A DNA stretch of 64,000 bases, from the IMG/VR virus record IMGVR_UViG_3300021376_000007; one strand, 5' to 3'. The translations under genes and the position numbers were made by a program. The DNA comes from a virus. Under the pieces are notes generated by a model, which had not been told where the DNA came from, ran no database searches, and saw only the letters and a list, made by a program, of their open reading frames with translations. Shown in pieces: positions 1 through 44,479 of this stretch (position 1 is the first letter of the stretch; each line of letters begins with the position of its first letter).

Positions 1-100
1 TAAACCACTTTTTGTAAAGAGTGTTTGTGTATTTGGGAGAATCATCTGAAACAATTTCAATTGATTCTATAAAATCGTCAACTGTTTTTTCAATAGACAT
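1..100 (-). CDS. hypothetical protein, 5' part only (runs off window start)
   Basis: ATG at 100 after GAGGA RBS, directly downstream of the AAA gene; frame open to base 1 (MSIEKTVDDFIES...). Confidence 0.5.
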   Translation of the reverse strand, partial: MSIEKTVDDFIESIEIVSDDSPKYTNTLYKKWF

Positions 101-109
101 AATTCCTCG

Positions 110-1708
110 CTAAGCTTTGATTGTCCAATTAGAACTTTGGTTGGTTTTTGTTTTACCAAGTATATCAGATGACTCATCGTACTGAGCGGTAGAGGCCCAA
201 TCCCAATTGTTCATCGCATATGCATATAAATCTTTAATCATTTGACGGTCTTTGTTCCAAAGAATATTCTTGGTCAAAGGAACTTGAGCAAGAATATCTT
301 GAGTTGTTATAGGACGACGATATAAAGAAACAATATTAAAAGTAACTTCTTTAATCAAAGATTTAATTTCTGCACCAGTAAAATACTTGATAGAATGAGC
401 AATTTGTTCAAGATTAAAATCAAAGTTAGGAAGATATATTTTAAGAATATCAATTCTTTCAGCAAAAGAAGGAAGACCAACAAAGAAAATTTTGTCAAAA
501 CGCTCTGCGCGAAGCATTTCGGGCTTGAGATGGGTAAGCTGATTTGCTGCGCACATCAAGAATACGTTGTCAGGAAGTTCTTGAAGTCCTGTCAAAAATT
601 CGCCATGAACACGATCAGTAGTGCCACCGTCTACATGGCTGGAAGATTGACCGCCAGACATATCGCGACCGAACTCATCGATCCATACACAAAGAGGAGC
701 CATTGCTTTGATTTGACGAAAAACCATGCGCATGTTTGCTTCTGATTGGCCAATGAATGAATTCATGACTTGACTAACACCGGTGCGTGCAAGGTCAAGA
801 CCCAGAGCATTAGCGGTGGCTTCACAAATAGCTGATTTACCAGTGCCTGGAACGCCAACAGTAAGAATTCTGCGCAAAGGTTGTATGCCGTATTTCTGCG
901 CTTCTTGTGGGTTGTTCCAGAAATATAGGTTGTTGCTGATTATATTTTTGATATTGTCAAGTCCACCAATGCTATCAAAATCTATTTTAGGTTTGATGAT
1001 CTCAAGAATACCATTTTTCTTGATATCAGACATCTTGGATTTGTAAATATACTGAGCATCTACAGAACCGGTTTCAAGAATTGAAGTCAAACAAAGATTA
1101 ATGAACTTAGACTCAGAAAGACCAAGTCCCGAATTTGCGATATCTTTTGCCTTCGCTTTATCTACTATGTCGCTTCCAGTCGATTGATATATGTGATATA
1201 GAATATCATGCAATTCGTCAAAAGTGGGATAGAGATCTTCATGAAAATAAACCATATGAGCAATATCTTCTGGTGGATCAAATGGAGAAAGAACAATTAC
1301 TTGAATGGGAAGCAATGATATATCGTCGTTCATGAAAGAAGAACGATATTCATAACTAGAAGAAGCAATATATGAACCAAACATCATAGAGAATGCTTTA
1401 GGATCTCCATGTTGATGATGTATAAAAGTTTTTGTATGATCTTTAAAGTCAGGAGAATTTTTCATAAAATCAAATGCCACAGATACATCTGCAGTGGTAG
1501 TAACTATGGGATTTGACGGACTTTCTGAATTTGGAATTGTAATCAACAAAGGTTTCCATTTTCCAGATACAAAATGAGAAAACCCATTTTTGTTAATTGT
1601 AAAATAAGACCTTTTAGCAAAAGAGGTAATTAGATCCTCAATGCGATAAGGGTCTACTGTCTTAACCCATATCGCAGGAGTTCCTATTTGAATTTGTTGA
1701 AACAACAT
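110..1708 (-). CDS. AAA+ ATPase (Ycf46/CDC48-like single active AAA)
   Basis: Walker A GVPGTGKS, Walker B VWIDE, SRH-like PEMLRAERFD. Start moved to ATG 1708 (GGAGA RBS) because the ORF-track start at 1768 lies in a hairpin. Confidence 0.9.
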   Translation of the reverse strand: MLFQQIQIGTPAIWVKTVDPYRIEDLITSFAKRSYFTINKNGFSHFVSGKWKPLLITIPNSESPSNPIVTTTADVSVAFDFMKNSPDFKDHTKTFIHHQHGDPKAFSMMFGSYIASSSYEYRSSFMNDDISLLPIQVIVLSPFDPPEDIAHMVYFHEDLYPTFDELHDILYHIYQSTGSDIVDKAKAKDIANSGLGLSESKFINLCLTSILETGSVDAQYIYKSKMSDIKKNGILEIIKPKIDFDSIGGLDNIKNIISNNLYFWNNPQEAQKYGIQPLRRILTVGVPGTGKSAICEATANALGLDLARTGVSQVMNSFIGQSEANMRMVFRQIKAMAPLCVWIDEFGRDMSGGQSSSHVDGGTTDRVHGEFLTGLQELPDNVFLMCAANQLTHLKPEMLRAERFDKIFFVGLPSFAERIDILKIYLPNFDFNLEQIAHSIKYFTGAEIKSLIKEVTFNIVSLYRRPITTQDILAQVPLTKNILWNKDRQMIKDLYAYAMNNWDWASTAQYDESSDILGKTKTNQSSNWTIKA

Positions 1709-1749
1709 CAAGTCTCCAATATCAAAATTATAAATTAAAGCCTCTATAA

Positions 1750-1835
1750 AAAATTGGGGGGGGACCATTCATAATGAATTTAATAAATCAAATTCAAATT
1801 ATAAAATTTAATTTAATAGTCCCCCCCCAAAATTT
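1750..1835 (-). terminator. inverted repeat between Ubl and AAA genes (terminator/processing site)
   Basis: AATTGGGGGGGGGAC ... GTCCCCCCCCAAAATT arms around a very AT-rich loop. Confidence 0.5.
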
Positions 1836-1864
1836 GGAAAGACAAAAGTCTTTCGCGAAAATAA

Positions 1865-2116
1865 TCAGCCCTTTTCGCCTGCGCGACGATGGAACTCTAC
1901 GTTGTCACCAGGCTGAATAACATAGTTCTCGTCAAGCTTGTCCTTGCCCTTGTAGGCAATGGCGTCGGAAGCAATGCCCCAAAGCTTGGAAAACTGCTGA
2001 CGAACGTCAGATACAGTCTTACCGGAAACTGGAGCAGGCTGATTGTAAACACCATAACGGATGTTAGCAGGTGCGTTTTGATTGGAAATGTTGGTCTGAT
2101 TGGAATTGAGTTCCAT
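1865..2116 (-). CDS. prokaryotic ubiquitin-like (beta-grasp) protein
   Basis: 83 aa; GKTVSDVR...YVIQPGDNVEF pattern of ThiS/MoaD/Ub folds; ends RRAGEKG with terminal Gly; directly after E1 gene. Confidence 0.8.
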   Translation of the reverse strand: MELNSNQTNISNQNAPANIRYGVYNQPAPVSGKTVSDVRQQFSKLWGIASDAIAYKGKDKLDENYVIQPGDNVEFHRRAGEKG

Positions 2117-2144
2117 GATTTTCTCCTATTATTAATTGATGAAT

Positions 2145-2894
2145 TTAAACCAAAATTTGAGATGTTACCATGCGATTGTATGGCTGAGCCATACCCAAAG
2201 CCAAATCAAAGTATATCTCTGATTGTTCTGGACTTTGTTCAAACACTATGGTGTGTTGAATCCGACCAAGTATAATTGCAGCAACAGCCATGTTGGTAGC
2301 CAAAATTTGGGTACCACCGTCTATTTCTGCTCTTTCTTGACAGGACATTTCGCCTGGATTACGGTCTGGTGGGTTTTGATATTCTGGGTGTGTTTCCACT
2401 GGATGAGCAGTAATATCATGACCGTTGCGTCTTTGATAGTGGTAGACACTACCAAACAACGCATCGTCATTACCTCCAGTGAAAACATCTACGTTATTGA
2501 TTTTCGATGCAGCGTCAAACAATATTTTACGTGCAGCAAAATTGTCAACAACGGCGATTACAATGTCATTTTCTCTAATAAGATCGGAAGCCTTGATTTT
2601 GTTCGAATCATCGTCGGTTGGAGGATGCTGATCAGAAACAACCCATTTTGGAACGGGTATGATAATTGTATTATGAAACTTCTCAGTAAGCTCAAGAGCC
2701 TTCACAGAAGCCTTGTTGCCCATTTGAGTAAAAGATTGGCGTTCAAGATTCTTCTGCTCAAAATTGTCACCGTCGACAATTAGCATAGCCGAGTTGGGAT
2801 ATTTCCATTCAAGCAATCTGGCCAAACCTTCGGAAAGCCAAGTGCCGATGCCTCCTGCACCAACAAGGACAATTCGTTTTTGATTCTCTTGCAT
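2145..2894 (-). CDS. ThiF/E1-like adenylating enzyme
   Basis: GAGGIG, VDGD..E.KNLERQ, KA, VVDNFAAR motifs; SC candidate catalytic Cys; no CxxC zinc pairs (PRTRC-type). Confidence 0.92.
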   Translation of the reverse strand: MQENQKRIVLVGAGGIGTWLSEGLARLLEWKYPNSAMLIVDGDNFEQKNLERQSFTQMGNKASVKALELTEKFHNTIIIPVPKWVVSDQHPPTDDDSNKIKASDLIRENDIVIAVVDNFAARKILFDAASKINNVDVFTGGNDDALFGSVYHYQRRNGHDITAHPVETHPEYQNPPDRNPGEMSCQERAEIDGGTQILATNMAVAAIILGRIQHTIVFEQSPEQSEIYFDLALGMAQPYNRMVTSQILV

Positions 2895-2909
2895 TAAAAT
2901 TTAACCCTT

Positions 2910-4556
2910 TCAGTAAGATTCTTTTTCGAGGCTATTAACAGTCCAATGTACAAACAAAGAACATTCTTTTATTAATGTTTGAATTTTTGTTTTGTCTTTT
3001 GCGTGATCAAGAATGGATGTGAGATAAGGAACGCATTGTCTAGTGTAATAGTGTTCACAATTATGGCAACTGGCAGTTGGATCGTAAACATTATGAGGAT
3101 GATCATAATCATAATCCACAATATCATTGTAAGTTACAGGAACAGTGCACTTATCGCAAGGTGAGAGGTAAAGATCACTCAAAGGACGGTCGCAACAAAC
3201 AGTGTTTTCATAGTTAAAACCTTCATAATAATAAGCATCAAGATTATTTGGTTCAAGGAAAGAACTAGACATTGCATCATCTATTTCATTATCTGAATAT
3301 GAAACATTGTAAAAATCTTGTATTTTGAGCATCATTTGCTCTTGATCATCATCTTCGGCAACCCAAAGATAAACAGAAACGTTCTTAGATTTATTACGTC
3401 TTTCCAAGTATCTATCAACTGATTCAAGTATATCTTGATGAGAATCTTCACAAAGAGCAAATAACATATCGCAATTATTGCAAACAAATTCATGGCTGTA
3501 ACCATGAACAACCGAATTGCAAGAAGGACACTTAAGATTCAACAAATTTTTAGAAATGTCCACTTCGGCAACGACGATATATGGATTGGGATCTTTGGGG
3601 TCAGGATATACTTGGAGAAATGGATCGCCTTTAATACCAACTTGAATATAATCCCGCTGAGGAGGCTTGAACTCCTGAACTATAGGGCGAGTTGGCGGAG
3701 TTAGCGTAAGCGGACCCCCCTGGGGGGGTAGCACTTTTTTTACTTTAGAGGTCCATTCAATGACTTGAGGATCTGGTTCTTTATTAAAAGTTACGTCAGC
3801 AAAAACATCTTCTGGCTTTAGTGTCCAAACAGAACCACTCATTTGCATTTCAATATGATACTGAGTGGCACCATTGTTGACAGATTTTTGCCAACCATAA
3901 GTAATATGCAAACCATCAAAATCAGCTTGATCGTCGTGATCAACGCCAGAAGCGTAAGCTGCCATGTTGGGATGGCTGTGGACAGAACCAACAATCATAA
4001 CGTGATCTGGCTTTTGATTAACAACACTGTCGGGATCATATTTACAATGGACAGAAGTGTTAACTTGATCAGGAACAAGAATTCCCCAACCTTCAGAATT
4101 GTCAACAAAATTAGGATCAAATGTCAAAAGAACTATTGATTCTGTACCATGTTGAAAGTCAACAAGCCTAAAGAACTCATCAAGTCTAGATACAATTTCA
4201 CGGGGAATTGGAGGAAGAGAATATGTAGCGCCTTCTCGAACAGGCTGAAAATCATAAATGTCTTCATTCTTAACTTGAGTTACAGAACGACCAACAAAAT
4301 TGTTGACGACTTTTACTATAGAAGTAGAAAAGTCAGTCAAAATTGTGGTGTTGACTTTTTGAACACCCTTGTCCCATATTTTATTTTCTATTTTACGATC
4401 TTCAGCAATGTTGCAAATCAGATAATAGATAGTAAAACCAAGGTTTTCAATAATATCTTCTATGTTGTCGCGGTCAGCCATAAAACATGGTACGCCGGAT
4501 TTAGTCCAAAAATAATTTAGATCTTCCAATGTCAAAGGTTCTTGTTCTGTAGTCAT
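2910..4556 (-). CDS. JAB/MPN+ metallopeptidase with C-terminal Cys-rich zinc-binding region
   Basis: E...GSVHSHPNMAAYASGVD = JAMM ExnHSHx7Sx2D motif; later CPSC/CNNC/CDKC/CHNC. Confidence 0.85.
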   Translation of the reverse strand: MTTEQEPLTLEDLNYFWTKSGVPCFMADRDNIEDIIENLGFTIYYLICNIAEDRKIENKIWDKGVQKVNTTILTDFSTSIVKVVNNFVGRSVTQVKNEDIYDFQPVREGATYSLPPIPREIVSRLDEFFRLVDFQHGTESIVLLTFDPNFVDNSEGWGILVPDQVNTSVHCKYDPDSVVNQKPDHVMIVGSVHSHPNMAAYASGVDHDDQADFDGLHITYGWQKSVNNGATQYHIEMQMSGSVWTLKPEDVFADVTFNKEPDPQVIEWTSKVKKVLPPQGGPLTLTPPTRPIVQEFKPPQRDYIQVGIKGDPFLQVYPDPKDPNPYIVVAEVDISKNLLNLKCPSCNSVVHGYSHEFVCNNCDMLFALCEDSHQDILESVDRYLERRNKSKNVSVYLWVAEDDDQEQMMLKIQDFYNVSYSDNEIDDAMSSSFLEPNNLDAYYYEGFNYENTVCCDRPLSDLYLSPCDKCTVPVTYNDIVDYDYDHPHNVYDPTASCHNCEHYYTRQCVPYLTSILDHAKDKTKIQTLIKECSLFVHWTVNSLEKESY

Positions 4557-6469
4557 TATATCTCCGTAAATAAATTTATAGGTTTGTTATTTACAACATA
4601 AGGCAAATGCATTTGTTGATAAAGTTTGAAATTGATAACTTGATCAAAAACAGATTGAGAAATCGGCACATAATCTGCCGCAAGTTCTTGACTTCCGTCT
4701 TCCTGAACAACAAGATGAATGTTACCTATACAAGACATGCAGCATTGCTGAACAGTGTATAGATCACCAGAATCATCAGAAATAGTTGTTTGGTGAGGGA
4801 AAGCAGTGACATCTTCCTTTTGTTTGAGAAAACCACAAGGACACAAAACAAAATTAGGCAGACACGTGTGGCATATATAAGAATCTTGGACATTGAAAGA
4901 ATCAGGATTTCCTGCCGGGGTGTAGTTGCCTTCTTCGTCGAAGGTTCCCATCGGCGCAGAAGAAAGTGTAGAAACGTTCCAATTGGAAGTTTTGTAATGA
5001 TAATCAAAAGGTTGATAATCTTGATCGTTTATGAGTGGTTTGGAACAAAAATTACAATTTACAAGTTCGTCTGAATCCATTGGCAAAAACTGGTAGAAAC
5101 AAGATTCGCATATGACACCGTACTTGGAATTTGTATACATATGTTGGTTAAGTTTTTGTGAACTTTCAGGACTCACACCAGAAACACCATAAGCATCAGA
5201 ACAATTTTCACAAACAAAAACAGAATCATGAGTTATATGATAATAGCATTCTTGTTCTTGTGAGTAACATACAGAATCATCGTTTGTATCGTAATATTTG
5301 TTTGTAGACGCTATATAACAATAATTTTCTTGAGCACAAAGTTCACAAATCAATGTATTGTAGGCCGTTGGAATGGGTTCATGGTCAGAATAGGCTTCTT
5401 CACAGCAACTACAAACAAAAGAAGAATCAGATTCATTTTCATTGAATATAGGAAGCAGGACATCAGATCCGGTCTTTTGTCTACTTTCAATAGTAAACTG
5501 ATATGGATTGTCTCTGGTTTGATGTCTAGCAATAGAAGGAGACAAAGAAAAAGATCTTTTGAAAATGTCAGCAATTTGTGTGGATGAAAGTTCTAAGTCA
5601 GGACGAGAAACAACGTTGTAAAGCTTGGGGACGTTATTGTCGTTATAATACGCCCTATAATTACCAAGCATGGCCATGGCAAGAGTGAGATATTGGCCAT
5701 TTTCATGATGCCCTTGTTGGTCATCGATACCTTTAACTTGAACAGGAATCCAAAGTTGGTCGTCTAATGTCCACTCATAACCATGTCTTACAGACCTATC
5801 TTGCCATTCAGCAGGGTCCCATAGATATTCTAGCTTGTTGTAAGAAGCATAAAAACGAGGGCCATCTGTTTCAGACATGTTGTTGTCATTGTATGTTTCT
5901 ACTCCAGAGCAACGTTCAATAAAACGAAGAACTTTTTCATTGAAAGGCAGAGATGACCAATCATCATTTTGATAAAGACAAACCCATCCCACACCGTTTC
6001 CGCGGTATCCTTTGCAATTAACGTTGGGAAGATTCACATGATAAAGAATATTGTCTGGAGAAGTGATTGGATAAGGAGAATAAAACATTCTTGCGCCAAG
6101 AAGATTGCCACAATCAAAGTCTCCGATGACTACACGATAAGGCTGAGCAAGATAATACGTAGTAGCTTTTGAATCCCCTTCATAAGCACCCCAGTTTATG
6201 TGATAAAGACCAGGAGCATGTTGGGCAACAATCTGAGTGTGATTGCCAGCAGAACGAATGGCAAGAACACCTGTGCCAGTAAGGGGCAAAAGACCAGTAT
6301 CAAAAGAAGCATGCTGAGAAAATGTCTTGTAAAAAGAAACAATGTCTTTGTCGGTTACGTGATCAAGATCAAAAGATCTAACAACAGACCGAACGGCAAA
6401 AGCACCTTGTTCATTCTTTACAAGAGAATATGAAAATTTATCGTTAACTTCAGTCATTTTAATCACCAT
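4556..6469 (-). CDS. prokaryotic E2-like protein (Prok-E2_D/PRTRC-B-like) fused to multiple zinc fingers
   Basis: LYHVNLPNVN...GVGWVC resembles the LY.APF.NV..G.VC core of this family; about 7 CxxC pairs in the C-half; operon context. Confidence 0.65.
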   Translation of the reverse strand: MVIKMTEVNDKFSYSLVKNEQGAFAVRSVVRSFDLDHVTDKDIVSFYKTFSQHASFDTGLLPLTGTGVLAIRSAGNHTQIVAQHAPGLYHINWGAYEGDSKATTYYLAQPYRVVIGDFDCGNLLGARMFYSPYPITSPDNILYHVNLPNVNCKGYRGNGVGWVCLYQNDDWSSLPFNEKVLRFIERCSGVETYNDNNMSETDGPRFYASYNKLEYLWDPAEWQDRSVRHGYEWTLDDQLWIPVQVKGIDDQQGHHENGQYLTLAMAMLGNYRAYYNDNNVPKLYNVVSRPDLELSSTQIADIFKRSFSLSPSIARHQTRDNPYQFTIESRQKTGSDVLLPIFNENESDSSFVCSCCEEAYSDHEPIPTAYNTLICELCAQENYCYIASTNKYYDTNDDSVCYSQEQECYYHITHDSVFVCENCSDAYGVSGVSPESSQKLNQHMYTNSKYGVICESCFYQFLPMDSDELVNCNFCSKPLINDQDYQPFDYHYKTSNWNVSTLSSAPMGTFDEEGNYTPAGNPDSFNVQDSYICHTCLPNFVLCPCGFLKQKEDVTAFPHQTTISDDSGDLYTVQQCCMSCIGNIHLVVQEDGSQELAADYVPISQSVFDQVINFKLYQQMHLPYVVNNKPINLFTEI

Positions 6470-6851
6470 TCAATAATTCATCAAGATGTTTGTCAATGTC
6501 AGAAGAAAAATCACCAAAAGTATTGGCGAACCAATTTGGTTCTTTCTCTGCCATTTTAATAACTTGAAGTTTAGGAAGAAGCTGATTTCTAAGATCAATA
6601 AGATCTGCTATGCGGTCTACAGCTTTAGCCAATTTTTTAAGATCTTGTTTATTTTCAGTTATATTAATAATAAATTTGAGAACAGGAACATCTTCAATAG
6701 TTATATTGTCGATAATCTTATCTATTCTATCGTTAAGTTTTGAAATATGTGATTCAAGTTGTTGCTTAACTTCTTTGGAAGAATCCAAATTATAATGAAA
6801 GTTTTTAATAGGATTAAGAGAAGACGGAATTTTTTCAGGATAAGAACTCAC
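6459..6851 (-). CDS. hypothetical coiled-coil protein
   Basis: 130-aa ORF overlapping the E2-like gene start; GAGGAG RBS. Confidence 0.7.
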   Translation of the reverse strand: MSSYPEKIPSSLNPIKNFHYNLDSSKEVKQQLESHISKLNDRIDKIIDNITIEDVPVLKFIINITENKQDLKKLAKAVDRIADLIDLRNQLLPKLQVIKMAEKEPNWFANTFGDFSSDIDKHLDELLNGD

Positions 6852-6859
6852 AATACTCC

Positions 6860-7504
6860 TTATGAAAGATAGGTATTAAAACCTAAAGACTTTTTAATAG
6901 AATCAAAAGATTGTGCGATATGCATCGAAGAACTCAATGCAGTATAATCAAAATATGAATAATCCCTGTCAACAATTTGCTGAACAGGAGATCTGTTGAT
7001 TTGTACACAAAGTTTTTCGTAAATATCAATACTGCGATTAATTGCGTGGTTCATAATTTTGATCAACGATCCAAAATATATATTGATAAATTGTGGATTG
7101 ATATCCACTTTTAGATCATTGGCGATGACTCTGATATTTTCGGAATTTGTTTCATCAAGAATAGTTTCAAGAAACGATTTAATAGTGAACCGCTTGATAA
7201 GTGATTCTTCAAGAACATTGGCATACAATTCTCTTGCAAAAGTACCGTTTGTTTGAGCATTCAAATGATCAAAAATTGTGCGATTTAAAGAATCAGTTTG
7301 AAAAATAAAGCGTGCACAGGCTTCATACAAAGTTGTAGAAAGACTGGCACGAAACATGAAGTTTTTGGAACTAAGGTATGTTGAATCGCTATTCTCTTTT
7401 GTTCGATCTATAAAAGAATCAATATCGACATCTGCGGGTTTTGATTCAGTATCAAAAGACGAATCATGAAAAAGATCATCATCATTGTCATTCACATTGT
7501 ACAT
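6860..7504 (-). CDS. hypothetical protein
   Basis: 214-aa ORF with AAGGA RBS, first gene of the Ubl operon region. Confidence 0.7.
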   Translation of the reverse strand: MYNVNDNDDDLFHDSSFDTESKPADVDIDSFIDRTKENSDSTYLSSKNFMFRASLSTTLYEACARFIFQTDSLNRTIFDHLNAQTNGTFARELYANVLEESLIKRFTIKSFLETILDETNSENIRVIANDLKVDINPQFINIYFGSLIKIMNHAINRSIDIYEKLCVQINRSPVQQIVDRDYSYFDYTALSSSMHIAQSFDSIKKSLGFNTYLS

Positions 7505-7542
7505 ATAATTCCTTAATCAAAAGTCCAATATTTTGAATTGAG

Positions 7543-7619
7543 TGCGGGCGACGGGATTTGAACCCGCGTGCCACCAACTACCCTTTCTACACTTTATAAG
7601 AGTGAGGGGATACGCCCGC
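7543..7619 (-). tRNA. non-canonical tRNA-like gene, anticodon TAT (Ile), rearranged arms
   Basis: acceptor GCGGGCG/CGCCCGC+A; T arm GCGGG-TTCAAAT-CCCGT; CACT-CTTATAA-AGTG arm where the D arm is expected; D-loop-like TAGTTGG after it. Confidence 0.65.
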
Positions 7620-7669
7620 TTGAAATAGCGGTGATGTATCCAAACATATTCGAAAGGGCAATCGATGTA

Positions 7670-7966
7670 CTAATCGCATTCTGTGATCCTTAAATAACGC
7701 CTGACAGTCATCGGGACGATTTGTGATTCTTTGACATTTGAATGATAATCCAAATTAGTGAAATAGGAAGAATTGAAAGCAATAAACATTTGCGCATCAT
7801 ACAACGTCGGAAAACGATATGTAGAAGAAGAAGGCAATAGTTCTACACACCAGCATAAACCATCATAACCTTTCATTTCGGCATCGTAATACATGACGAC
7901 ATGTGGAACAGCAATTTCTTCCATGCTTATGTCCTCTTTTTCAAAATTAGATGTCGGTGGAGGCAA
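7670..7966 (-). CDS. hypothetical protein
   Basis: ORF on the coding strand between tRNA genes; true start may be MEEIAV. Confidence 0.5.
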   Translation of the reverse strand: MPPPTSNFEKEDISMEEIAVPHVVMYYDAEMKGYDGLCWCVELLPSSSTYRFPTLYDAQMFIAFNSSYFTNLDYHSNVKESQIVPMTVRRYLRITECD

Positions 7967-8232
7967 TGTCCAAGAACCTCCACCGACAAATCAGTTGACC
8001 AACAATGCATAATTGGTAAAATCTTACACAGAAAGTTTTAGATGAAACGTTCTGGTTTTGAATGATCACGTTCATGGATAGAGCAGTAATCAGCAAAATT
8101 ATATCTGGATAATATAGTTTTGCATTTTTTGTGTTGACATCTGCGAAGTTCGGTGGAACTAACAATTTTGGAAGGCTTTGGTTGATAGCCTTGAGCAGAA
8201 TACGATCTCATAGTAAACTTTCTTTCTCATTG

Positions 8233-8306
<74 letters not shown>

Positions 8307-9871: not shown

Positions 9872-9947
9872 TGGTGGGTCCTGTGGGGCTCGAACCCACG
9901 ACCAATAGATTAAAAGTCTACTGCTCTACCAACTGAGCTAAAGACCC
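9872..9947 (-). tRNA. tRNA-Lys(TTT)
   Basis: GGGTCTTTAGCTCAGTTGGTAGAGCAGTAGACTTTTAATCTA...GGTTCGAGCCC...GACCCACCA, encoded CCA. Confidence 0.95.
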
Positions 9948-10279: not shown

Positions 10280-10582
10280 TTATTTATTATTAATTTTTCG
10301 CGTTCTTACTCTGAAACGAGGTGGATAATAACCATTAGAAAGTCTTTGATTTTCTGTTTCCGCTCCCCAAATTCCATATTCTCTATGTCTTCGAGCATAG
10401 TCTCGACATTCATGGATATTGGGACAGGAAAAGCATATGGTTTTAGCTTTACGTTCTCTAAGACGCTTTTCTTTAATATTTTCGTTTTGATTTCCAAAAA
10501 ACAAATCAGTCTTCCCTTTGCAGGGAGCAGATTCAAACCAATCAAGATTTTCAATCATGTAAAATTTTCCATTTATCAACAC
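10280..10582 (-). CDS. whiB: WhiB-family Fe-S transcription regulator
   Basis: W...APC...DLFF...AKTICFSCP...C..YA....YGIWG..TE..R; four conserved Cys plus G[IV]WG turn. Confidence 0.92.
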   Translation of the reverse strand: MLINGKFYMIENLDWFESAPCKGKTDLFFGNQNENIKEKRLRERKAKTICFSCPNIHECRDYARRHREYGIWGAETENQRLSNGYYPPRFRVRTRKINNK

Positions 10583-10766
10583 CCGGAATAAGACCTAACT
10601 TAGATCCATTATCCCAACTGACAAATACTGTACCAACATCATCTATATAATCTATTGTACCAAGATCACCATACTGAAGTTTGGTATATTCATCATCGGT
10701 GCTAATAAGTTGGATTCTTTTACCAAGCCAATGAAAAGATTCTTTTGCAATTTCAAATGCGTCCAT
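10551..10766 (-). CDS. DUF4314-like protein
   Basis: GKRIQL...DDEY..L..GDLGTI..IDD.GTVFVSWDNGS.LGL.PG.D pattern. Confidence 0.75.
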   Translation of the reverse strand: MDAFEIAKESFHWLGKRIQLISTDDEYTKLQYGDLGTIDYIDDVGTVFVSWDNGSKLGLIPGVDKWKILHD

Positions 10767-11616: not shown

Positions 11617-11629
11617 AAATTTATTTGAG

Positions 11630-11715
11630 TACCCGAGGCCGGACTCGAACCGGCACGCCCGATTAAAGGCGAAAGATTTTAAGTCTCTTGCGTCTGCCTA
11701 TTCCGCCACTCGGGC
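11630..11715 (-). tRNA. tRNA-Leu(TAA)
   Basis: GCCCGAGTGGCGGAATAGGCAGACGCAAGAGACTTAAAATCTTT...long variable arm...GGTTCGAGTCC..CTCGGGTA. Confidence 0.95.
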
Positions 11716-12466: not shown

Positions 12467-13990
12467 TTATTTTGCATTTTTTCTCTTATTTATATTAACA
12501 GAAAAAGGTCTGGGAGAATTTGGATTAACAGGAGTAGTATAAACTGATCTAGTAGAAACAATTTTCCCATTATAACCATGAGTATTCATCTTGCAATAAG
12601 AAATAAGAGATGGAGAAATCTTAATATTAAAAGAATTCCAACCATATCTTGATGTTCTTGGAACAACAAAATTATAATTGGCAGAATCGTTGCAAATTAT
12701 TGAATAATGAGAAATATTTGCATAACCTCTATAAGGATCTCTGTAATAAGCTTTAATAAAAGTTTTCCAAGAAGCATCTAGTTCATGAAGAACAGGCGCA
12801 AAAACAGCGCCATAAGAAGGTGGTCTAGGAATCGTGGTGGTGGTAGAAGTTGTAGAAGTAGAAGTGGTTGAAGTAGAAGTGGTGGAAGTGGTGGTGGTGG
12901 TCACAACTACAGGTAGTGTGGTTGTAGTTGTGGTAGAAGATGTAGTGGTTGTGGTGGAAGTTGTGGGAATGGGTATTACAGTATCGAACAAATGTGCAAA
13001 ATGAAGATATGGAATTTTGATACCAGTATAGGAATCGGTAGCGGTGCGAGTAGTCATCTTAAAATCAGAAACTACTCTGTCAACAGACTGAACTCCAAAT
13101 TTTGACCTGTAAACAGCAAAAGCTCCAGCAATATGGGGAGCTGCCATTGAAGTTCCAGATGAAGACCTATAAGAAGATTGTGTAGTGGAAGATGCAACAT
13201 TGTGACCAGGTGCAGCAAAAGTAGTAAATTTGCTGATATTTGAAAAATTGGCAACATTGGGAGAATTAACATACATAGCTGCAACAGAAACTGTGTGCGA
13301 AATACAAGCAGGCGAACTCATCCCGTGAGCATAGCTGTTGCCTGAAGAAACAACAGTTGCAATATTCAAATCTTTCAAGTTTTTAATTGCAGTTGTCAAT
13401 TCAGGAATGTAGTTATCGCAAGTAGTAGAAAAAACAGAAGAACTTCCCAAAGACATATTTACAGAAGCAATGTTGTACTGAGAAGAAATACTACTGACCC
13501 AATTGAGAGCACTAATAATATTGCTGTCATATGATGAGCCAGTTGAATCAAAGACATTAACAGCAATAATATTGGCCTGTGGAGCAATTCCTCTCATGGA
13601 AGAAGAACTGCCAGCAGCAATCCCGGCAACATGGGTACCATGCCAATGCACCGGAGCTGCTGCACCAGGGCCAATCATGGATGTTTGATTATTGGGACAT
13701 TTCAAAGAAAAGCACGCTTCTAAAACGACTCTGTCTTGAAAAAAGGGATGATCTTTCTGTACACCGCTGTCAATAATTACAATATGAGAATTTTGGCCTT
13801 TGTAACCTAAATCATAAGGAATGTTTGCAGCAACAAAAGGTATCGATTTCGTAAGATTAAAAGTAAAACGAACTGGAGAAGTAGCAGAAGCTACGTCAAC
13901 AATTCGTTTTTGGGCACTTGCTGGTGCCTTGACAAAAAAAGTAGAGAACAAAAATAATGTGAAAATAATTCTTTTAAGTTTGTAGGACAT
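12467..13990 (-). CDS. secreted S8 subtilisin-like serine protease with Thr-rich linker
   Basis: signal peptide; IIDSG, HGTHVAG, SSGN, GTSMAAPH catalytic motifs; poly-Thr/Ser tract about 12830-12965. Confidence 0.93.
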   Translation of the reverse strand: MSYKLKRIIFTLFLFSTFFVKAPASAQKRIVDVASATSPVRFTFNLTKSIPFVAANIPYDLGYKGQNSHIVIIDSGVQKDHPFFQDRVVLEACFSLKCPNNQTSMIGPGAAAPVHWHGTHVAGIAAGSSSSMRGIAPQANIIAVNVFDSTGSSYDSNIISALNWVSSISSQYNIASVNMSLGSSSVFSTTCDNYIPELTTAIKNLKDLNIATVVSSGNSYAHGMSSPACISHTVSVAAMYVNSPNVANFSNISKFTTFAAPGHNVASSTTQSSYRSSSGTSMAAPHIAGAFAVYRSKFGVQSVDRVVSDFKMTTRTATDSYTGIKIPYLHFAHLFDTVIPIPTTSTTTTTSSTTTTTTLPVVVTTTTTSTTSTSTTSTSTTSTTTTIPRPPSYGAVFAPVLHELDASWKTFIKAYYRDPYRGYANISHYSIICNDSANYNFVVPRTSRYGWNSFNIKISPSLISYCKMNTHGYNGKIVSTRSVYTTPVNPNSPRPFSVNINKRKNAK

Positions 13991-14441
13991 TGTATCTCCA
14001 TTGAATATCAGATATATAAAAAGATTCAGGATCAGAGTAGTCTGTTGTATAGACTACTCTGTAAATCCTGTTCTTTTGTATTTGCTGCATGCACCAAGAG
14101 CACGGACGCGCAATGGCAGTAGTGCCATCGAGCTTCAATCTGGCAACATACAAAGTGGAATCGGATGGATCAGAACAACCTTTCATGGCACCTATTTCAG
14201 CATGGGTACTGAAACGATTGGGCGGAGTTGTGGGATGTTTCTTTGTGACATTTATGTCAGTAGCAAGAACTGATCCAGCTCTGACGGCAATGCACGCCAT
14301 TTTGAACCTGTTGTCAGAAGTTTGAGCTAACTTGGCAGCAGCAGCAAGAAAGCTTTTGTCCCTAGTTGATACAGGAGTAGGATGATAGATGTAAGCATCA
14401 TAGGGATAAAAAACAAAACTTTGAGTTGATAAGAGTGTCAT
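13974..14441 (-). CDS. cytidine/dCMP deaminase-family protein
   Basis: HAE ... ARPCSWC zinc motif. Confidence 0.85.
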   Translation of the reverse strand: MTLLSTQSFVFYPYDAYIYHPTPVSTRDKSFLAAAAKLAQTSDNRFKMACIAVRAGSVLATDINVTKKHPTTPPNRFSTHAEIGAMKGCSDPSDSTLYVARLKLDGTTAIARPCSWCMQQIQKNRIYRVVYTTDYSDPESFYISDIQWRYNVLQT

Positions 14442-38531: not shown

Positions 38532-38759
38532 TCAGTTCTCTTCGTTGATCATTCCGATTTCACGCAGTTCTTCGCGTGAGTATGTGAACAGCATCCACTT
38601 GATTGCCTTTTTGACTGCTTTGTCCAAGGACATCCAATTGTGGCTGTTGATCTGGATTGATTGTGCATGAAAGAGGATTTTCTCTGCTCCAGTGAAGCCG
38701 TATTTGTGGTACAGCTTTTCCTTGATTTGAGTTTCCTTGTATTCACGTTTCAGTAACAC
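38532..38759 (-). CDS. cassette hypothetical protein
   Basis: AAGGAG RBS, GTG start. Confidence 0.65.
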   Translation of the reverse strand: MLLKREYKETQIKEKLYHKYGFTGAEKILFHAQSIQINSHNWMSLDKAVKKAIKWMLFTYSREELREIGMINEEN

Positions 38760-38857
38760 TATGTGCTCCTTGATTGTTTGTTGTTGGTTTTAGGCAGCCG
38801 TCAAGCTACCAATAAAGAGAGAACCCCTTTCGGGGCTCTCTCCATTGCTGCCTTTCT

Positions 38858-39277
38858 TCAGCTATTTGATGTCTTTCCTGTCACCCAGTCCTTGGCAATT
38901 TCAATCGCCTCCTCCTTGGTGTAGCCCCTGTTGTACAGCGTTCTGTGACTGCCCAACTGGACTCCGTACTGGACTTCTGCCGAGTTCTTCTGCTTGTAGA
39001 CAAGTGCCCACATGTTCGTGGGATCGGTCACTGCTCGAATTTCGGCTACGTATAACGCATCTTCGTCTATTCTGACGTTTATTGCGATTCCGTTGATCAC
39101 ATCAGTGGTCATGTTGACCAGATTCAGGAGCTGTTCAGCTTCTTCTATCTGATTTCCCATGTTCCTCAGCTTTTCTGTCAGTTCGGTGTGCAACTTTCGA
39201 TATGCTGCTAGCTCCTCTCTGACTTCAGCGTCGCGACCAAATAAGGTCACCACCTTGTGATTCCAGTGTATTGTCAT
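38858..39277 (-). CDS. cassette hypothetical coiled-coil protein
   Basis: start MTIHW after GGAGG; the ORF-track extension to 39487 crosses an array element. Confidence 0.7.
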   Translation of the reverse strand: MTIHWNHKVVTLFGRDAEVREELAAYRKLHTELTEKLRNMGNQIEEAEQLLNLVNMTTDVINGIAINVRIDEDALYVAEIRAVTDPTNMWALVYKQKNSAEVQYGVQLGSHRTLYNRGYTKEEAIEIAKDWVTGKTSNS

Positions 39278-39396
39278 GGTTTTTCCTCCATGTTCTGCCC
39301 ACATCACAGCGATGTAGGACTTGGCAGCCGTCAAGCTACCCATAAAGAGAAAACCCCATTTCTGGGGTCCTCTCTCCGTTTGCCTGACCACTATGG

Positions 39397-39810
39397 TTAC
39401 TTGTGGGTTTTCGGTGCCTTGGCAGGGTGTCCAGTGTGGCGGCCCATGCAGCCACCCTGTCCAGCCTTGCGGAAGCAGTACGAGCACCGACCGTCGACTT
39501 CTGCGTCGTTGATCCGTGCTTGCTTGTCCTGTTGAAGTTGGCGCAACTCCTGCACTTGCTGGTGCAACGCCTCCATCTCCTCAGCGATTACGTCAGCGTT
39601 GAGCTTCAGCATCTCTTGGAGAAAAGACTGCAGGTCTTCGAGGCCGTTGAGAGTCTGTTCCACATTCTGTGTGAACTCATCGTCTCGCGGGATCTCGTTG
39701 ACCCACTTGCCGAGCTTCTGTGTCGCCTTGGGGTCATACCCCAGAATCGTCATGAAGCCAATCAAAAAGGTGACCGCCGAAACGGCCTCCTCCATCTTCT
39801 TTTCCTTCAT
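39397..39810 (-). CDS. cassette hypothetical protein
   Basis: start MKEKK after GAAAGAGG; coiled coil plus CSYC. Confidence 0.65.
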   Translation of the reverse strand: MKEKKMEEAVSAVTFLIGFMTILGYDPKATQKLGKWVNEIPRDDEFTQNVEQTLNGLEDLQSFLQEMLKLNADVIAEEMEALHQQVQELRQLQQDKQARINDAEVDGRCSYCFRKAGQGGCMGRHTGHPAKAPKTHK

Positions 39811-39955
39811 TGTTATACCTCTTTCGTGGTAGTCGCAATCAGGCAAACTGGGAGGCTGTCAACCTACCCATAAAAGAAAAACCACACTGGCAGTGTGGTA
39901 TTCTTTATATAACTCATTGATAATAATCAACTACTTGAGCATGTCTGACTTGAGA

Positions 39956-40168
39956 CTACTGGTCCCAGGCCTTGGCTGCCTTCACGAGGGCTTTTTTGGC
40001 GTCCAGCTCCTGCCGCAGCAGGATCTTGTACTCCTCCATGTCCTCGGGAAAGCGACACCTGAGGAACTCTCCGCGCACCTTCAAGAGGGCCACACAGGCC
40101 TCCAGCAGGTTCTTGTCGATGTCCTCGGCGTGATCGTGATTGCTCATCTCGATCTCCCCTTTCTCCAC
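39956..40168 (-). CDS. cassette hypothetical protein
   Basis: single ORF between elements; start may be 40147. Confidence 0.6.
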   Translation of the reverse strand: MEKGEIEMSNHDHAEDIDKNLLEACVALLKVRGEFLRCRFPEDMEEYKILLRQELDAKKALVKAAKAWDQ

Positions 40169-40384
40169 AGAGTCACCTGTGGTGAGGTGCGCACACCGGG
40201 TTGGTGTACGTCTTGGTATTCAACAAGCTTCTGTGCTGGATGCACAGGGCTTGGTGTCTACCCATAAAGAGAAAACCGCACTAAAAAGCACGGTTTCTCA
40301 ATCACCAATTGTGTTTCTCAATCACCAAGTATTAAGATATGTATAGGATGGTGAATCCTTGGTTCGCCCTTGCCTAAGCAATGG

Positions 40385-40804
40385 CTACTTCGTGAACCCC
40401 TCGGTGACGTTGAAGATGTTGATCTCCATCTTGGTGATGTGCTCCTCGTTGTACATAACGACGATGTCATCACGCTGGATTTCTTTCTTCAGCCAAGCCT
40501 TAAGGCACTCAGTCACAACGTGATGAGTGATGTCCTTTGTCGGGCTCAGGAGATGAAACGGGTCGGTCTTCTCCAACTCGGAGTTATACTCACTGACTAC
40601 GGTAAACGCCCAGTTAAAGCCTTTTTCAAGACCAATCAACTCGACGTCAACCCAGCGAGGGCACTCAACAGGCATGCCGTCGACAAAATCGCGCACATGA
40701 GTGACGATCTCGTCATACAGCAGGTCAGCAGATGCCCACAGAAGCAGAGCTCCAATAGGGAGATTCATGAGAGCTTCGACAAGCCCCCAATCCTTCTCGT
40801 CCAT
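40385..40804 (-). CDS. cassette hypothetical protein
   Basis: start MDEKD after GAAAGGA. Confidence 0.7.
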   Translation of the reverse strand: MDEKDWGLVEALMNLPIGALLLWASADLLYDEIVTHVRDFVDGMPVECPRWVDVELIGLEKGFNWAFTVVSEYNSELEKTDPFHLLSPTKDITHHVVTECLKAWLKKEIQRDDIVVMYNEEHITKMEINIFNVTEGFTK

Positions 40805-40928
40805 GGTTTCCTTTCGGGTGGCCTCTACCAAGAGACTCTTAGTCTACCCATAAAGAAAGAACCCCTTTCGGGGCCCTTTCTTTGAACTGCCTTTTCAGTT
40901 CATTGCAGGAATGTTGCTTGTTCGCCCT

Positions 40929-41183
40929 TTACGGGTTGATTTTTCCGTTGGGGAACTGGACAATGTCACCAATCTCAACAGATCCGTACTTCATTGAAAT
41001 GTAGTACATTGCTGTCTCTAGGTCTCCCCAGCAATTGGTGATCACCCCATCCCACTTGGTCCAACCCTCCTGAACTGTCACGGTTGCACCGTTGCACCAG
41101 GATGTTTCCTGATGCTGGACGCATCCCTTGAATGTCCAGGAAAGGATCGCCACCAAGGTTATGGCGATGATTCCTTTCTTCAT
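40929..41183 (-). CDS. membrane-anchored protein with degenerate LysM-like domain
   Basis: N-terminal TM; VTVQEG.T.W.......GD.......I....G.V.IG..V.FP. Confidence 0.5.
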   Translation of the reverse strand: MKKGIIAITLVAILSWTFKGCVQHQETSWCNGATVTVQEGWTKWDGVITNCWGDLETAMYYISMKYGSVEIGDIVQFPNGKINP

Positions 41184-41298
41184 GGTAGTTTCCTTCCATG
41201 TTCTGCCCACATCACAGCGATGTAGGACTTGGCAGCCGTCAAGCTACCCATAAAGAGAAAACCCCTTTCGGGGTAATCTCTCCGATTTGCTCTAGTCC

Positions 41299-41868
41299 TT
41301 AAGCAGAAGAACTCGGCAGATTGATTGCCTTGTAACGGCTAAACAGGCTGGAAATCCACCTTTCCGGCGTGTACCTAAAGGACTGGTCCCATCCGACACA
41401 CACCGACGGGCTGAAAATCTCGTGGTGCAAGTCCATGTCGCCAAATGACTTGGCATGCTCTTCCTTAATCGTCTCCCAGAGCTCAACCCTGTTCAGCTCA
41501 TGCAGCCTTCCAATACGCCAACACCACTCGTGATACATGCAATCATCGTCGCTGTCGACAAACTCTCCATTTGCGTTCAACGGATACGAAAACTGTGTCC
41601 ACATAAGGGTGCCCTCGTCGACCGAAAGCAACAGAGAAACTGTCACCCAGTTGCCAAGCTGCTCGTCGCCAACCTGCTTAAAGAAGCTGCCAACAACACC
41701 CAGGCTGTCCTTCTTGTCCTTCACCAACATACGGTTGGTGACGACAATGCCATTGTCCTCGAGACGAAGGATCAACCCATCGATTCCCGGCATGTCGAGA
41801 ATCTTTTGGTAGTCAGGCCTGGCCTGACTTGAGATAGAGGGGCGGATAGGGGCAAAGAAGTCGCTCAT
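41299..41868 (-). CDS. cassette hypothetical protein
   Basis: start MSDFF after AAGGAG. Confidence 0.7.
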   Translation of the reverse strand: MSDFFAPIRPSISSQARPDYQKILDMPGIDGLILRLEDNGIVVTNRMLVKDKKDSLGVVGSFFKQVGDEQLGNWVTVSLLLSVDEGTLMWTQFSYPLNANGEFVDSDDDCMYHEWCWRIGRLHELNRVELWETIKEEHAKSFGDMDLHHEIFSPSVCVGWDQSFRYTPERWISSLFSRYKAINLPSSSA

Positions 41869-41988
41869 GGCGAACTCCTTTCTCCAGACTTTTTTGCGCA
41901 AGCCTGGTCGGGCGCAGGTAACCGAGTGGCTACCCATAAAGAAAAAACCTCTTTCGAGGTCTTCTCCTTTGAACAGCTTTTCTTCTGC

Positions 41989-42468
41989 TCATATATCGAA
42001 TGAACGTGCATTGTGCCAATCAATCAAGTCCTCCACGTGCTGAGGCATTGCTTCAATGATTGCCGAAAAGGTTTCGTTGTAATCATTAACGTTTTCCACC
42101 TTGTTATCAAAAGTTGTCCGCGTCGAGTCCATAGCCAAATAAACGTCGTATTCCTGATGATTCACATCAACATCAAATCGTGTTTCAATGAAATCGGTTC
42201 GAGTCGATGCCATCCACGTCAAATCAACACTAATTATAGCCTGCTCACCGTACGCAAGCTCCAACGTGACAAGAGCGCTATGAGTTGCACCAACGACATT
42301 GTCGATCACAACAACACAACCAATGACAGGAAGAATCACCTTGTTTACCACCACGGCCCTTTCAGAGATAGCGACATTGTGGTAGTCTTGAACACAATCA
42401 ACAAACTGTGTCCAAGTTGGAATTTCATAGAGGCTAGCGGGGTGGATGCGGCGAGGAGTAATGTTCAT
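41989..42468 (-). CDS. cassette hypothetical protein
   Basis: start MNITP after AAGGAG. Confidence 0.7.
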   Translation of the reverse strand: MNITPRRIHPASLYEIPTWTQFVDCVQDYHNVAISERAVVVNKVILPVIGCVVVIDNVVGATHSALVTLELAYGEQAIISVDLTWMASTRTDFIETRFDVDVNHQEYDVYLAMDSTRTTFDNKVENVNDYNETFSAIIEAMPQHVEDLIDWHNARSFDI

Positions 42469-42618
42469 GACATTCTCCTTTCTCCAGATTCTTGTACGCC
42501 AATCTGGTAGCGCAGATAGACAGTAGAGTCTACCCATAAAGAGAAAACCCCCCGAAGAGGGTAATCTCTAGTGTTTGTTCTGTTGCCAGGCGGTCACTAC
42601 GCCCCGAGTCTTATTCAG

Positions 42619-42789
42619 TTAGTCTGTCAACTCGACGTCGGCAAAACGAGCCAAGAGAGCCCATTCCTGGTGTCTCCAAGCATCGTCGTCCCAACGGACG
42701 AGTCTGAAGCACTCGCAACAGACATGACCGTCCCGCAGTTTGCGGAAATCGGTCAGTCCGTGCTCAGTGCACAGACCACGCTTGCCCAT
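42619..42789 (-). CDS. 56-aa zinc-ribbon protein not in the ORF track
   Basis: AAGGAGGT RBS; MGKRGLCTEHGLT...HVCCEC. Confidence 0.7.
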   Translation of the reverse strand: MGKRGLCTEHGLTDFRKLRDGHVCCECFRLVRWDDDAWRHQEWALLARFADVELTD

Positions 42790-42890
42790 ATTTACCTCCT
42801 TTCTGGATAGATGACCTACCTGGTCTGGGATCTACCCATAAAGAGAAAACCCCATTTCTGGGGTCCTCTCCTTTGAGCATCCTTTTTTGC

Positions 42891-43409
42891 TCAGTAGTCA
42901 GTGCCCTTCTGAAAGAGCCCTTCCACCAGGAACTCCAAGTTTTTCTCGAAGTCCTGGTCCACGATGTGGACCAGTGGCACGTTGGCGTGGAACCACATCG
43001 CACCCAGTTGCGGGTTGTACCCGATGCTGTTGTGGAGCTCCACGTACTGCCTGTAGTGCTCGGAAGGGACGAGGACGTATGCGACGAACGGGTAGCGATC
43101 ACCATACTTGTCGAATCGCCATGAAATGGTTAACTCGACGAAGTAGGAGACACCGGGATCGGGCTCGCCTCGGATCAACCGAGTAGAGTAGCCGACTGGT
43201 ACCATGTTGATGACGTACCTGCTGAGACGCTCCGTGGCGGATTGCGCCGCGTAGGAAACGCTGTCAGACTGGACGTTGAAGATGGCTTGGAGCAACAAGA
43301 TGAACTTGTACTCCTTCCCCGTCTTGGTTGACGAGAAGTAAAAGAACCTCTCGTCTGTCCAGTATGACAACTCCGAACGCAGGTCTTCGTCCTGCATCTG
43401 ACTGTCCAT
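42891..43409 (-). CDS. cassette hypothetical protein
   Basis: AAGGAG RBS, 172 aa. Confidence 0.7.
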   Translation of the reverse strand: MDSQMQDEDLRSELSYWTDERFFYFSSTKTGKEYKFILLLQAIFNVQSDSVSYAAQSATERLSRYVINMVPVGYSTRLIRGEPDPGVSYFVELTISWRFDKYGDRYPFVAYVLVPSEHYRQYVELHNSIGYNPQLGAMWFHANVPLVHIVDQDFEKNLEFLVEGLFQKGTDY

Positions 43410-44378: not shown

Positions 44379-44479
44379 AAACTCTCCTCCTTTAGGCAGC
44401 CGTCAAGCTACCCATAAAGAGAAAACCCCATTTCTGGGGTCCTCTCTCCGAAGGTACCAGGCTACCTTCTACCTTTTAG

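Follow-up and report, generated by a model that had tools for sequence, protein, structure and literature searches.

Ubiquitin-like (Ubl) protein conjugation in bacteria has so far been demonstrated as a host defence against phages, in the Bil, Bub and CBASS (anti-phage signalling that relies on cyclic oligonucleotides) systems. The locus described here appears to place such a kit in a phage. It lies at the left end of a 64,000-nucleotide (nt) window of the IMG/VR record IMGVR_UViG_3300021376_000007; the window is the whole stretch of DNA that was analysed, and positions refer to it unless another record is named. An original prediction, made from the sequence alone, had read positions 110-6469 as a complete operon of E2-like, JAB, E1, Ubl and AAA ATPase genes. 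The reading favoured here, with a probability slightly above even, is a phage-encoded system of Ubl conjugation and deconjugation that would be co-transcribed with a Cdc48/VAT-like unfoldase.

The gene block and its conservation

The five genes of the original prediction were all recovered, co-oriented, tightly packed and on the minus strand. A sixth gene at 6459-6851 belongs to the same block. The description of the operon as complete understated the system, since in complete relatives two further E2-like genes follow, outside the window. The block comprised six co-oriented open reading frames (ORFs) within positions 110-6851, listed here in gene order on the minus strand with lengths in amino acids (aa) and the basis of each assignment.

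6459-6851, minus strand: 130-aa predicted coiled-coil protein, first gene of the conserved block (ORF list)
4556-6469, minus strand: 637-aa E2-like protein with an N-domain and a cysteine-rich tail (ORF list, motif, weak fold matches)
2910-4556, minus strand: 548-aa JAMM/JAB metallopeptidase (JAMM motif, hidden Markov model (HMM) matches below cut-off)
2145-2894, minus strand: 249-aa ThiF-type E1, adenylation domain only (Pfam ThiF)
1865-2116, minus strand: 83-aa Ubl candidate ending in ...EFHRRAGEKG (Gly terminus, E1 neighbour)
110-1768, minus strand: classic AAA ATPase with one module, 552 aa, or 532 aa from its likely start at 1708 (Pfam AAA)

The first two junctions were overlaps of 11 nt (130-aa and 637-aa genes) and 1 nt (637-aa and JAB genes), followed by gaps of 15, 28 and 96-156 nt. 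The last gap measured 96 nt, or 156 nt with the AAA start placed at the internal Met at 1708, which is the likely start because orthologues begin at that Met. A promoter and terminator scan of positions 1-8000 returned consensus-level sites alone and no clear terminator within the six-gene block.

The arrangement was compared across 44 related IMG/VR loci carrying 34 distinct E1 DNA sequences. All six genes were present in 39 of the 44 loci, the other five being cut by contig ends, and gene order and strand were identical in 39 of 39, which places the arrangement far beyond chance. In 43 of 44 loci the 130-aa gene immediately preceded the E2-like gene; the exception, L037, begins inside the E2-like gene. 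Residues F18, R42, P56, W107, F112 and D114 of the 130-aa protein were invariant in 30 sequences, and its Pfam and PHROG matches did not rise above chance level. The best conserved proteins of the block were the E1 (51-85% identity across loci) and the 83-aa protein (43-83%), and the least conserved were the JAB protein (37-62%) and the 637-aa protein (41-65%).

The DNA of the window comes from a phage: it contains a terminase large subunit gene (58900-60405), RecA, a helicase and three tRNAs, and its relatives are IMG/VR genomes with direct terminal repeats; an S8 protease gene was also present. Five of the relatives are genomes of 202-211 kb with such repeats. The cassette is a conserved core module of a large, abundant, uncultured freshwater (lake-water) phage lineage with genomes of roughly 200 kb. 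Neither blastn with the cassette nor tblastn with the 637-aa protein gave a match among 50,697 deposited phage records. The E1 matched 8 phage and 5 plasmid records, in every case at less than 33% identity. The E1 neighbourhoods in a Butyrivibrio plasmid and in Bacillus phage WH1 were set aside as different ThiF/JAB cassettes, without this E2-like protein or AAA ATPase.

The enzymes, the candidate tag and the E2-like protein

Judged from sequence, the identities of the E1, the JAB peptidase and the AAA ATPase are solid, and every catalytic motif is present. The profile searches through which the original prediction proposed to confirm the cassette gave a divided answer: ThiF was detected with confidence, Prok-JAB fell below its cut-off, and neither Prok-E2_D nor Prok_Ub matched the 637-aa and 83-aa proteins. 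The Ubl call for the 83-aa protein comes from its Gly end and its position, and the E2 call from a motif, a weak fold likeness and a weak profile link.

The E1 matched Pfam ThiF (E 1.3e-13; 51.1 bits against a cut-off of 28.1) and so belongs to the ThiF family in the general sense. Its best NCBIfam match was PRTRC_ThiF (TIGR03736; E 3.1e-9), at 36.5 bits against a curated cut-off of 144.75, and the ThiF, MoeB and SAMP-E1 models of NCBIfam (E 1e-8 to 1e-6) also stayed far below their cut-offs. PADLOC models of E1-E2 proteins (Cap2-type) matched down to E 8e-7, and phmmer against the PDB found nothing at E <=0.001. Glycines G12, G14, G15 and G17, R52, D117 and the sole cysteine, C185 in PGE-x-S-C, were invariant in 29 sequences. 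The protein contains no rhodanese domain and no zinc-binding tetracysteine.

The N-terminal region of the JAB protein is long, and its C-terminal half is rich in cysteines. Prok-JAB reached E 0.007 (16.6 bits, cut-off 25), and the best NCBIfam match, PRTRC_A (TIGR03735), reached E 0.009 (15.5 bits, cut-off 101.8), both below cut-off. Its zinc site E...HxHx7Sx2D is complete, with E139, H193, H195, S203 and D206 invariant in 35 sequences, as in JAMM/MPN+ peptidases. Two CxxC pairs (C343/C346 and C359/C362) were invariant in the same 35 sequences, and weak Rpn11 matches covered the JAMM motif (E 0.33).

The AAA protein matched Pfam AAA (E 1.9e-22) and the NCBIfam models CDC48 (E 3.8e-30), PAN (2.4e-29) and FtsH (4.6e-25). 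In a profile search of the PDB the matches included VAT (8.6e-68), Cdc48 (2e-66) and PAN (1e-34), the closest being VAT, Cdc48 and p97 D2. Four motifs were invariant or nearly so in 32 sequences: GVPGTGKS (Walker A), WIDEFGRD (Walker B), NSFIGQ (the aromatic pore loop) and RAERFD (second region of homology). Together they are those of a classic AAA module. It has a single AAA domain (residues 301-431 of 552) and not the tandem D1 and D2 modules, and it scored 104.9 bits on the CDC48 subfamily model, against a cut-off of 802.65. Pfam detected no CDC48_N family at E <=0.1 and no PAN coiled-coil/OB domain, and the family-specific N-domain of 240 residues matched no family. By sequence the protein falls in the clade of proteasomal activators.

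The 83-aa protein is supported as a Ubl tag candidate by its size, its adjacency to the E1, an invariant tail (EFHR-x-x-GEKG) and a stop at Gly. G83 was invariant; the protein ended exactly there in 26 of 28 orthologues and ran on for two residues in the other 2 of 28, a pattern that resembles modifiers with peptidase-trimmed precursors. Five lysines (K33, K58, K60 and K82 among them) were invariant or nearly so. ThiS-family clusters made up 11 of 30 neighbours of the protein in the ESM Atlas, which is a lead only. Its profile produced one match in the PDB, to an unrelated hypothetical protein at E 0.013, which was treated as chance.

The 637-aa protein consists of a conserved N-domain (residues 1-340) and an array of CxxC zinc-finger-like modules (residues 350-637); its database copy begins at Met5 (633 aa). 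The putative active site reads LPN149...GWxC164LY and is reminiscent of the E2 active site motif (H)PN...G-x-I-C-L, which has eight residues from Asn to Cys in canonical E2 enzymes. In an alignment of 151 sequences (the window protein and 150 representatives) N149, G161, W162, C164 and Y166 were found in 151/151, P148 in 143/151, C152 in 130/151 and C187 in 59/151, and N149 with C164 reproduces the order of Asn then Cys of the E2/UBC superfamily. C152 was ruled out as the catalytic Cys, being replaced in 21 of 151 sequences. The spacing from Asn to Cys was 15 in the 637-aa protein, against 8 in both downstream paralogues described below.

The predicted model of the whole protein had a predicted local distance difference test (pLDDT) score of 79, and that of the N-domain a pLDDT of 82 and a predicted template modelling score (pTM) of 0.81. 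The modelled N-domain runs through a helix, a beta-meander, a long motif-bearing loop and helices, preceded by an extension of three strands and a helix with a weak likeness to PUR-alpha/Whirly repeats. A fold search that covered 48,161 representatives had E2/UBC proteins in 15 of its top 50 rows (Z 3.0-3.8, up to 137 residues aligned), among them Ube2K (Z 3.8, 117 residues), UBE2R2 (3.6, 133) and Pex4p (3.4, 137). The weak matches also included 9eav_D, a BubCD-BubB-BubA chain (Z 3.1), and 8hsb_B, a chain of a CdnG-E2 complex (Z 3.1). In a second fold search 10 of 50 rows were E2/UBC proteins, and the alignments covered as many as 135 of the 150-156 E2 residues. Across these E2/UBC rows the matches were weak (Z 2.6-3.8, root-mean-square deviation 3-6.5 A); they carry weight because one fold recurs over the same model residues (~50-240).

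Profile comparison with hhalign aligned the N-domain to the two downstream paralogues in the same register, with probabilities of 58% (E 1e-4) and 15% (E 1.8e-3). In the ESM Atlas the N-domain adjoins viral clusters with Prok-E2_D in 13-20% of their members, and 28 of the 30 nearest named-cluster matches carry that family. With the motif, the weak likeness in fold and the weak, distant link between profiles taken together, the E2 call is moderately supported. The N-domain is probably E2-like, with seven residues inserted into its active-site loop.

The tail contains 16 invariant Cys, mostly in CxxC pairs, and its residues 349-396 resemble FYVE, PHD, RING and ZZ fingers (Z 3.0-4.2 over 35-56 residues). 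A PDB profile search with the whole family returned zinc-ribbon ribosomal proteins alone, at E 0.1 or worse. Relatives of the protein span 297-761 aa, and forms of ~350, ~455 and ~550 aa retain the N-domain; a variable metal-binding array fused to an E2-like core would suit a built-in target selector. Altogether, 469 relatives were found at E <=0.001 among 90% clusters. With the N-domain profile 222 clusters (50% identity) were collected, of which 184 reached E <=1e-30, and none of the 222 had a name or a Pfam domain. The protein defines a large family, unnamed in protein-family databases, and could be an E2 that has diverged and carries an inserted active-site loop.

A possible conjugation route and its alternatives

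The catalytic residues are present and conserved, and the chemistry that they suggest would begin with an 83-aa protein made with a free C-terminal Gly83, or trimmed to it by the JAMM peptidase; trimming is proposed because two orthologues carry the two-residue extension. The E1, whose motifs are in place, would then adenylate Gly83 and load the tag onto C185. From there the tag would move to Cys164 of the UBC-like N-domain, with Asn149 acting as the asparagine of the E2 'HPN' motif. The variable zinc-finger array may pick the target and so replace an E3, and the JAMM peptidase may also remove the tag. In the last and weakest step, suggested by strict synteny, the AAA ATPase, with its pore loop intact, would engage tagged proteins through its N-domain and unfold or extract them.

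Several results weigh against this route. The Asn-to-Cys spacing of 15 departs from the canonical value. No Pfam, PHROG, PADLOC or NCBIfam family was assigned to the 637-aa protein, and at relaxed thresholds the protein and 136 relatives still gave no Pfam match (0/47, 0/50 and 0/40), with no Prok-E2 model, Prok-E2_D (PF14460) included, at E 0.1-1 or better. UQ_con was found in 0 of 5 complete relatives, and the sub-threshold Prok-E2_D matches, seen in 4 of 5 complete genomes, fell on genes other than the 637-aa gene. No fold row reached Z >=5, the acceptance level of the tool, so that each match taken singly lies within noise; neither model had a Foldseek match in the PDB at E <=0.001, and the active-site loop was modelled with low confidence in the whole protein. 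The 83-aa protein, the putative tag, matched no Prok_Ub, ThiS or ThiS-like HMM, and the same searches of five complete relatives returned nothing (Prok_Ub, PF14454, 0/5 at E <=10). What ties the AAA ATPase to the tag is gene order alone. The role that the original prediction proposed, with host or viral proteins tagged and then extracted by the AAA ATPase, or else counter-defence, is likewise suggested by conserved synteny only.

Further genes were seen in complete relatives, downstream of the cassette; the equivalent region would lie to the left of window position 1, and tblastn for these genes, the peptidase included, found none inside the window. Past the AAA gene the co-directional block of the relatives continues with two conserved small genes, a variable stretch, two E2-like paralogues, MerR-like, SSB, UDG-family and KTSC-domain genes and a peptidase. 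Two features of this stretch are listed here.

Relatives L011 18727-21131 and L052 4060-7190: two adjacent genes for E2-like paralogues (~390-590 aa; ~400-415 aa), downstream of the AAA gene by 2.4-4.8 kb
L052 10239-10868, cassette strand: BPH/HslV-like proteasome homologue, 204-211 aa, ~9 kb downstream of the AAA gene

The paralogues matched Prok-E2_D below threshold in 4 of 5 complete relatives (13.3-17.6 bits, cut-off 25; per-genome E 3e-4 to 6e-3) and proved to be homologues of one another (hhalign 98.5%). In both, an invariant Asn is followed eight residues on by an invariant Cys (N149/C157 and N174/C182). With these two genes the phages probably own three E2-like enzymes.

The proteasome homologue scored 33.4 bits on Pfam Proteasome (cut-off 22.4), E 5.7e-8 on archaeal proteasome beta and E 2e-5 on BPH in the PDB (5ovs). 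It begins MTTI..., with the Thr nucleophile right after Met and without a propeptide. At locus-equivalent ~24.5-26 kb it was present in 5/5 genomes with terminal repeats and 6/10 further records. Among records at least 90% complete it occurred in 9 of 10; one 92%-complete record and its subgroup have the cassette without the peptidase. The gene is probably outside the cassette operon, because SSB, UDG, KTSC and MerR-like genes intervene. ClpP was found in 0 of 5 complete relatives.

A second phage unfoldase is encoded in the window at 49025-50506 (plus strand), a 493-aa single-module ClpB/ClpA-D2-like ATPase with AAA_2 and ClpB_D2-small domains. It matched the ClpB equivalog model at E 5.6e-95, yet far below the cut-off, and is a possible alternative partner for the proteasome homologue of the relatives.

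The proteasome homologue invites a wider reading, which we consider unlikely: that these phages bring a miniature ubiquitin-proteasome system into a bacterium. Its parts would be a tag ending in Gly, an E1, three E2-like enzymes, of which one is fused to a zinc-finger array for target recognition, a JAMM peptidase resembling Rpn11, a tag-reading Cdc48/VAT-like unfoldase and a proteolytic BPH/HslV-like ring. Tagged proteins would be unfolded by the AAA ATPase and degraded in the Ntn (N-terminal nucleophile) peptidase, and the JAMM peptidase would recycle the tag as Rpn11 does. The wide occurrence of the homologue on the cassette strand, the placement of the AAA ATPase in the clade of proteasomal activators and the presence of an aromatic residue among its last five residues in 31/32 orthologues all point this way. 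Its separation from the cassette and the subgroup that keeps the cassette without it count on the other side, as does the ATPase at 49025-50506. Rings of BPH/HslV type, moreover, are not known to have an alpha ring for HbYX docking, which also counts against the full pathway. According to Fuchs et al. 2021 (PMC8665760), such homologues have no known co-occurring AAA+ partner; the presence of a proteasome homologue in most of the same genomes makes the cassette ATPase a concrete candidate for that part. If the pathway were real, no earlier case of a bacterial virus encoding degradation that depends on a tag would precede it, and it would provide the first AAA partner of a BPH-type proteasome homologue.

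About equally doubtful is a system dedicated to one target or to self-modification. Here the E1 and the JAB peptidase would act on the small protein, the 637-aa protein would serve as substrate or scaffold and not as a general E2, and the tag would be ligated to one fixed partner, comparable to the CD-NTase in type II CBASS. The weakness of the E2 assignment leaves room for such a role. So does the E1, which among defence models matched the Cap2-type E1-E2 alone; the 130-aa partner gene always overlaps the 637-aa gene, and the conserved lysines of the 83-aa protein are compatible with self-chains. A thioester carrier, however, needs just such an invariant Asn149 and Cys164 within a UBC-like topology, and the zinc-finger tail varies in length as a part for target recognition would. 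The two additional E2-like paralogues, each with its own invariant Cys, suggest several acceptors.

Counter-defence is improbable. A phage would profit from a deconjugating peptidase against Bil and CBASS, and the JAMM peptidase could undo host Ubl immunity (Bil, type II CBASS) by cleaving conjugates, or the 83-aa protein could jam it as a decoy tag. A deconjugase alone would be enough for that purpose, and the retention of E1, Ubl, E2-like and AAA genes in 39/39 untruncated loci argues for an active conjugation pathway; PADLOC matches were limited to the E1 and to IetA-type similarities of the AAA protein.

A sulfur-carrier pathway, in which the small protein would be ThiS/MoaD-like and thiocarboxylated by the E1 for a cofactor or thio-nucleoside, with the JAB protein acting in maturation only, accords with the NCBIfam matches of the E1 and the ThiS-family neighbours of the small protein but is improbable, as the E1 lacks a rhodanese domain, no ThiG, ThiH, MoaE, cysteine desulfurase or thiouridylase family occurred among the ORFs scanned near the cassette in the window and its relatives, and sulfur transfer has no use for the strictly linked E2-like protein with its invariant Cys, JAMM peptidase and AAA unfoldase.

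Other genes of the window were recorded alongside the cassette. Three tRNA genes (minus strand) lie among small ORFs just upstream of it: Met-CAT at 8232-8306, Lys-TTT at 9872-9947 and Leu-TAA at 11629-11715. A gene for a WhiB-family transcription factor (10280-10582, minus strand; Pfam E 1e-12) hints at an actinobacterial host; genes for a DUF4314 protein (10551-10766) and a dCMP/cytidine deaminase (13974-14441) lie near it. The S8 protease is a 507-aa subtilase (Peptidase_S8 E 1.7e-32, phrog 'protease'), and its gene (12467-13990) is part of the long gene block on the minus strand. Positions 26000-46000 form a 20 kb stretch of ~50% G+C, against ~35% elsewhere.

Relation to known systems

PRTRC (ParB-Related, ThiF-Related Cassette), an operon type with E2, JAB, E1 and Ubl genes that occurs on plasmids and mobile elements, is uncharacterised and is defined by TIGR03735-03738, Prok-E2_D, Prok-JAB and Prok_Ub. 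It is the nearest named system. As in PRTRC, separate small genes for an E1, a JAB protein, an E2-like protein and a Ubl protein lie on a mobile element; PRTRC_ThiF and PRTRC_A were the best NCBIfam matches of the phage E1 and JAB protein, and the downstream paralogues matched Prok-E2_D weakly. In contrast to PRTRC, the scores lay far under the curated cut-offs, the phage E2-like protein had no Prok-E2_D match and the Ubl candidate no Prok_Ub match, and the phage cassette adds a zinc-finger tail, the 130-aa partner and the AAA ATPase. A scan of ORFs of about 80 aa and more close to the cassette, made in the window and in the relatives L011 and L052, showed no ParB family. Four of the five defining PRTRC models were tested, and the E1, JAB, E2 and Ubl proteins reached none of them. 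Membership of the PRTRC/Prok-E2_D type, to which the original prediction referred, is not demonstrable, because the 637-aa protein fails every direct HMM test, that for Prok-E2_D included. In the literature searched, PRTRC appeared in annotation contexts alone.

A comparable block occurs in a cultured jumbo phage, Acinetobacter phage vB_AbaM_ME3 (L057, record positions 135746-140985), where a 294-aa hypothetical protein, a 'PRTRC system protein A', a ThiF protein and a 72-aa ORF stand together. The 294-aa protein gave a weak Foldseek/BFVD match to the N-domain model (E 7.9e-3), and hhalign of the N-domain against it found nothing. The annotation of PRTRC protein A near ThiF in ME3 indicates that phage kits of this general kind are already in databases, unremarked, and ME3 is a possible laboratory model for them. 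The jumbo-phage review PMC7824862 makes no mention of JAB, E1-like or Ubl proteins. A literature search that placed subscription journals and supplements outside its scope returned no paper on this cassette or on a phage Ubl system joined to an AAA ATPase. A Ubl tagging operon that is always followed by an AAA unfoldase is a combination undescribed for viruses of bacteria in the literature searched.

The host systems type I/II Bil, Bub and type II CBASS (Cap2/Cap3) likewise have genes for E1, E2, Ubl and a peptidase together and carry out true protein conjugation, according to the available text of PMC11601603 and PMC11601596. In the same sources they are host defence systems without an AAA unfoldase, whereas the present cassette is phage-borne. 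As described in the accessible parts of the respective papers, Bil tags phage tail proteins (PMC11601603) and CBASS employs Cap2/Cap3 (PMC10097602). Bub differs further in forming oxyesters with Ser, where the phage cassette has an invariant Cys. The available text of Gong et al. (PMC11601603) holds bacterial Ubl tagging unlikely to be a degradation signal. The strict linkage of the phage cassette to an unfoldase of the proteasomal clade bears on the question that Bil and Bub raise, namely the purpose of tagging in cells without a proteasome.

The archaeal setting of VAT/Cdc48 and PAN with SAMP/ubiquitin-like tags and an Rpn11-like JAMM peptidase offers another comparison. The phage AAA protein, too, is a classic-clade module and shares their pore loop and arginine-finger region; the phage JAMM peptidase, with its weak Rpn11 similarity, stands beside a Ubl candidate. 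Unlike the archaeal proteins, the phage AAA protein has one module instead of D1 and D2, and its N-domain is family-specific; the phages encode no 20S proteasome, just a BPH/HslV-like homologue in most relatives.

Proteasome homologues of tailed phages, PPH and AAH, were reported by Fuchs, Alva and Lupas (2021; PMC8665760), who report no genomic context that would hint at what they do. The relatives of the present phage share with them a proteasome-like Ntn peptidase in a tailed phage, a 209-aa protein closest to BPH in the PDB. The difference from the PPH and AAH homologues, as the available part of that paper presents them, is that here the homologue shares its genome and strand with a Ubl cassette and an AAA ATPase that falls, by sequence, in the proteasomal clade.

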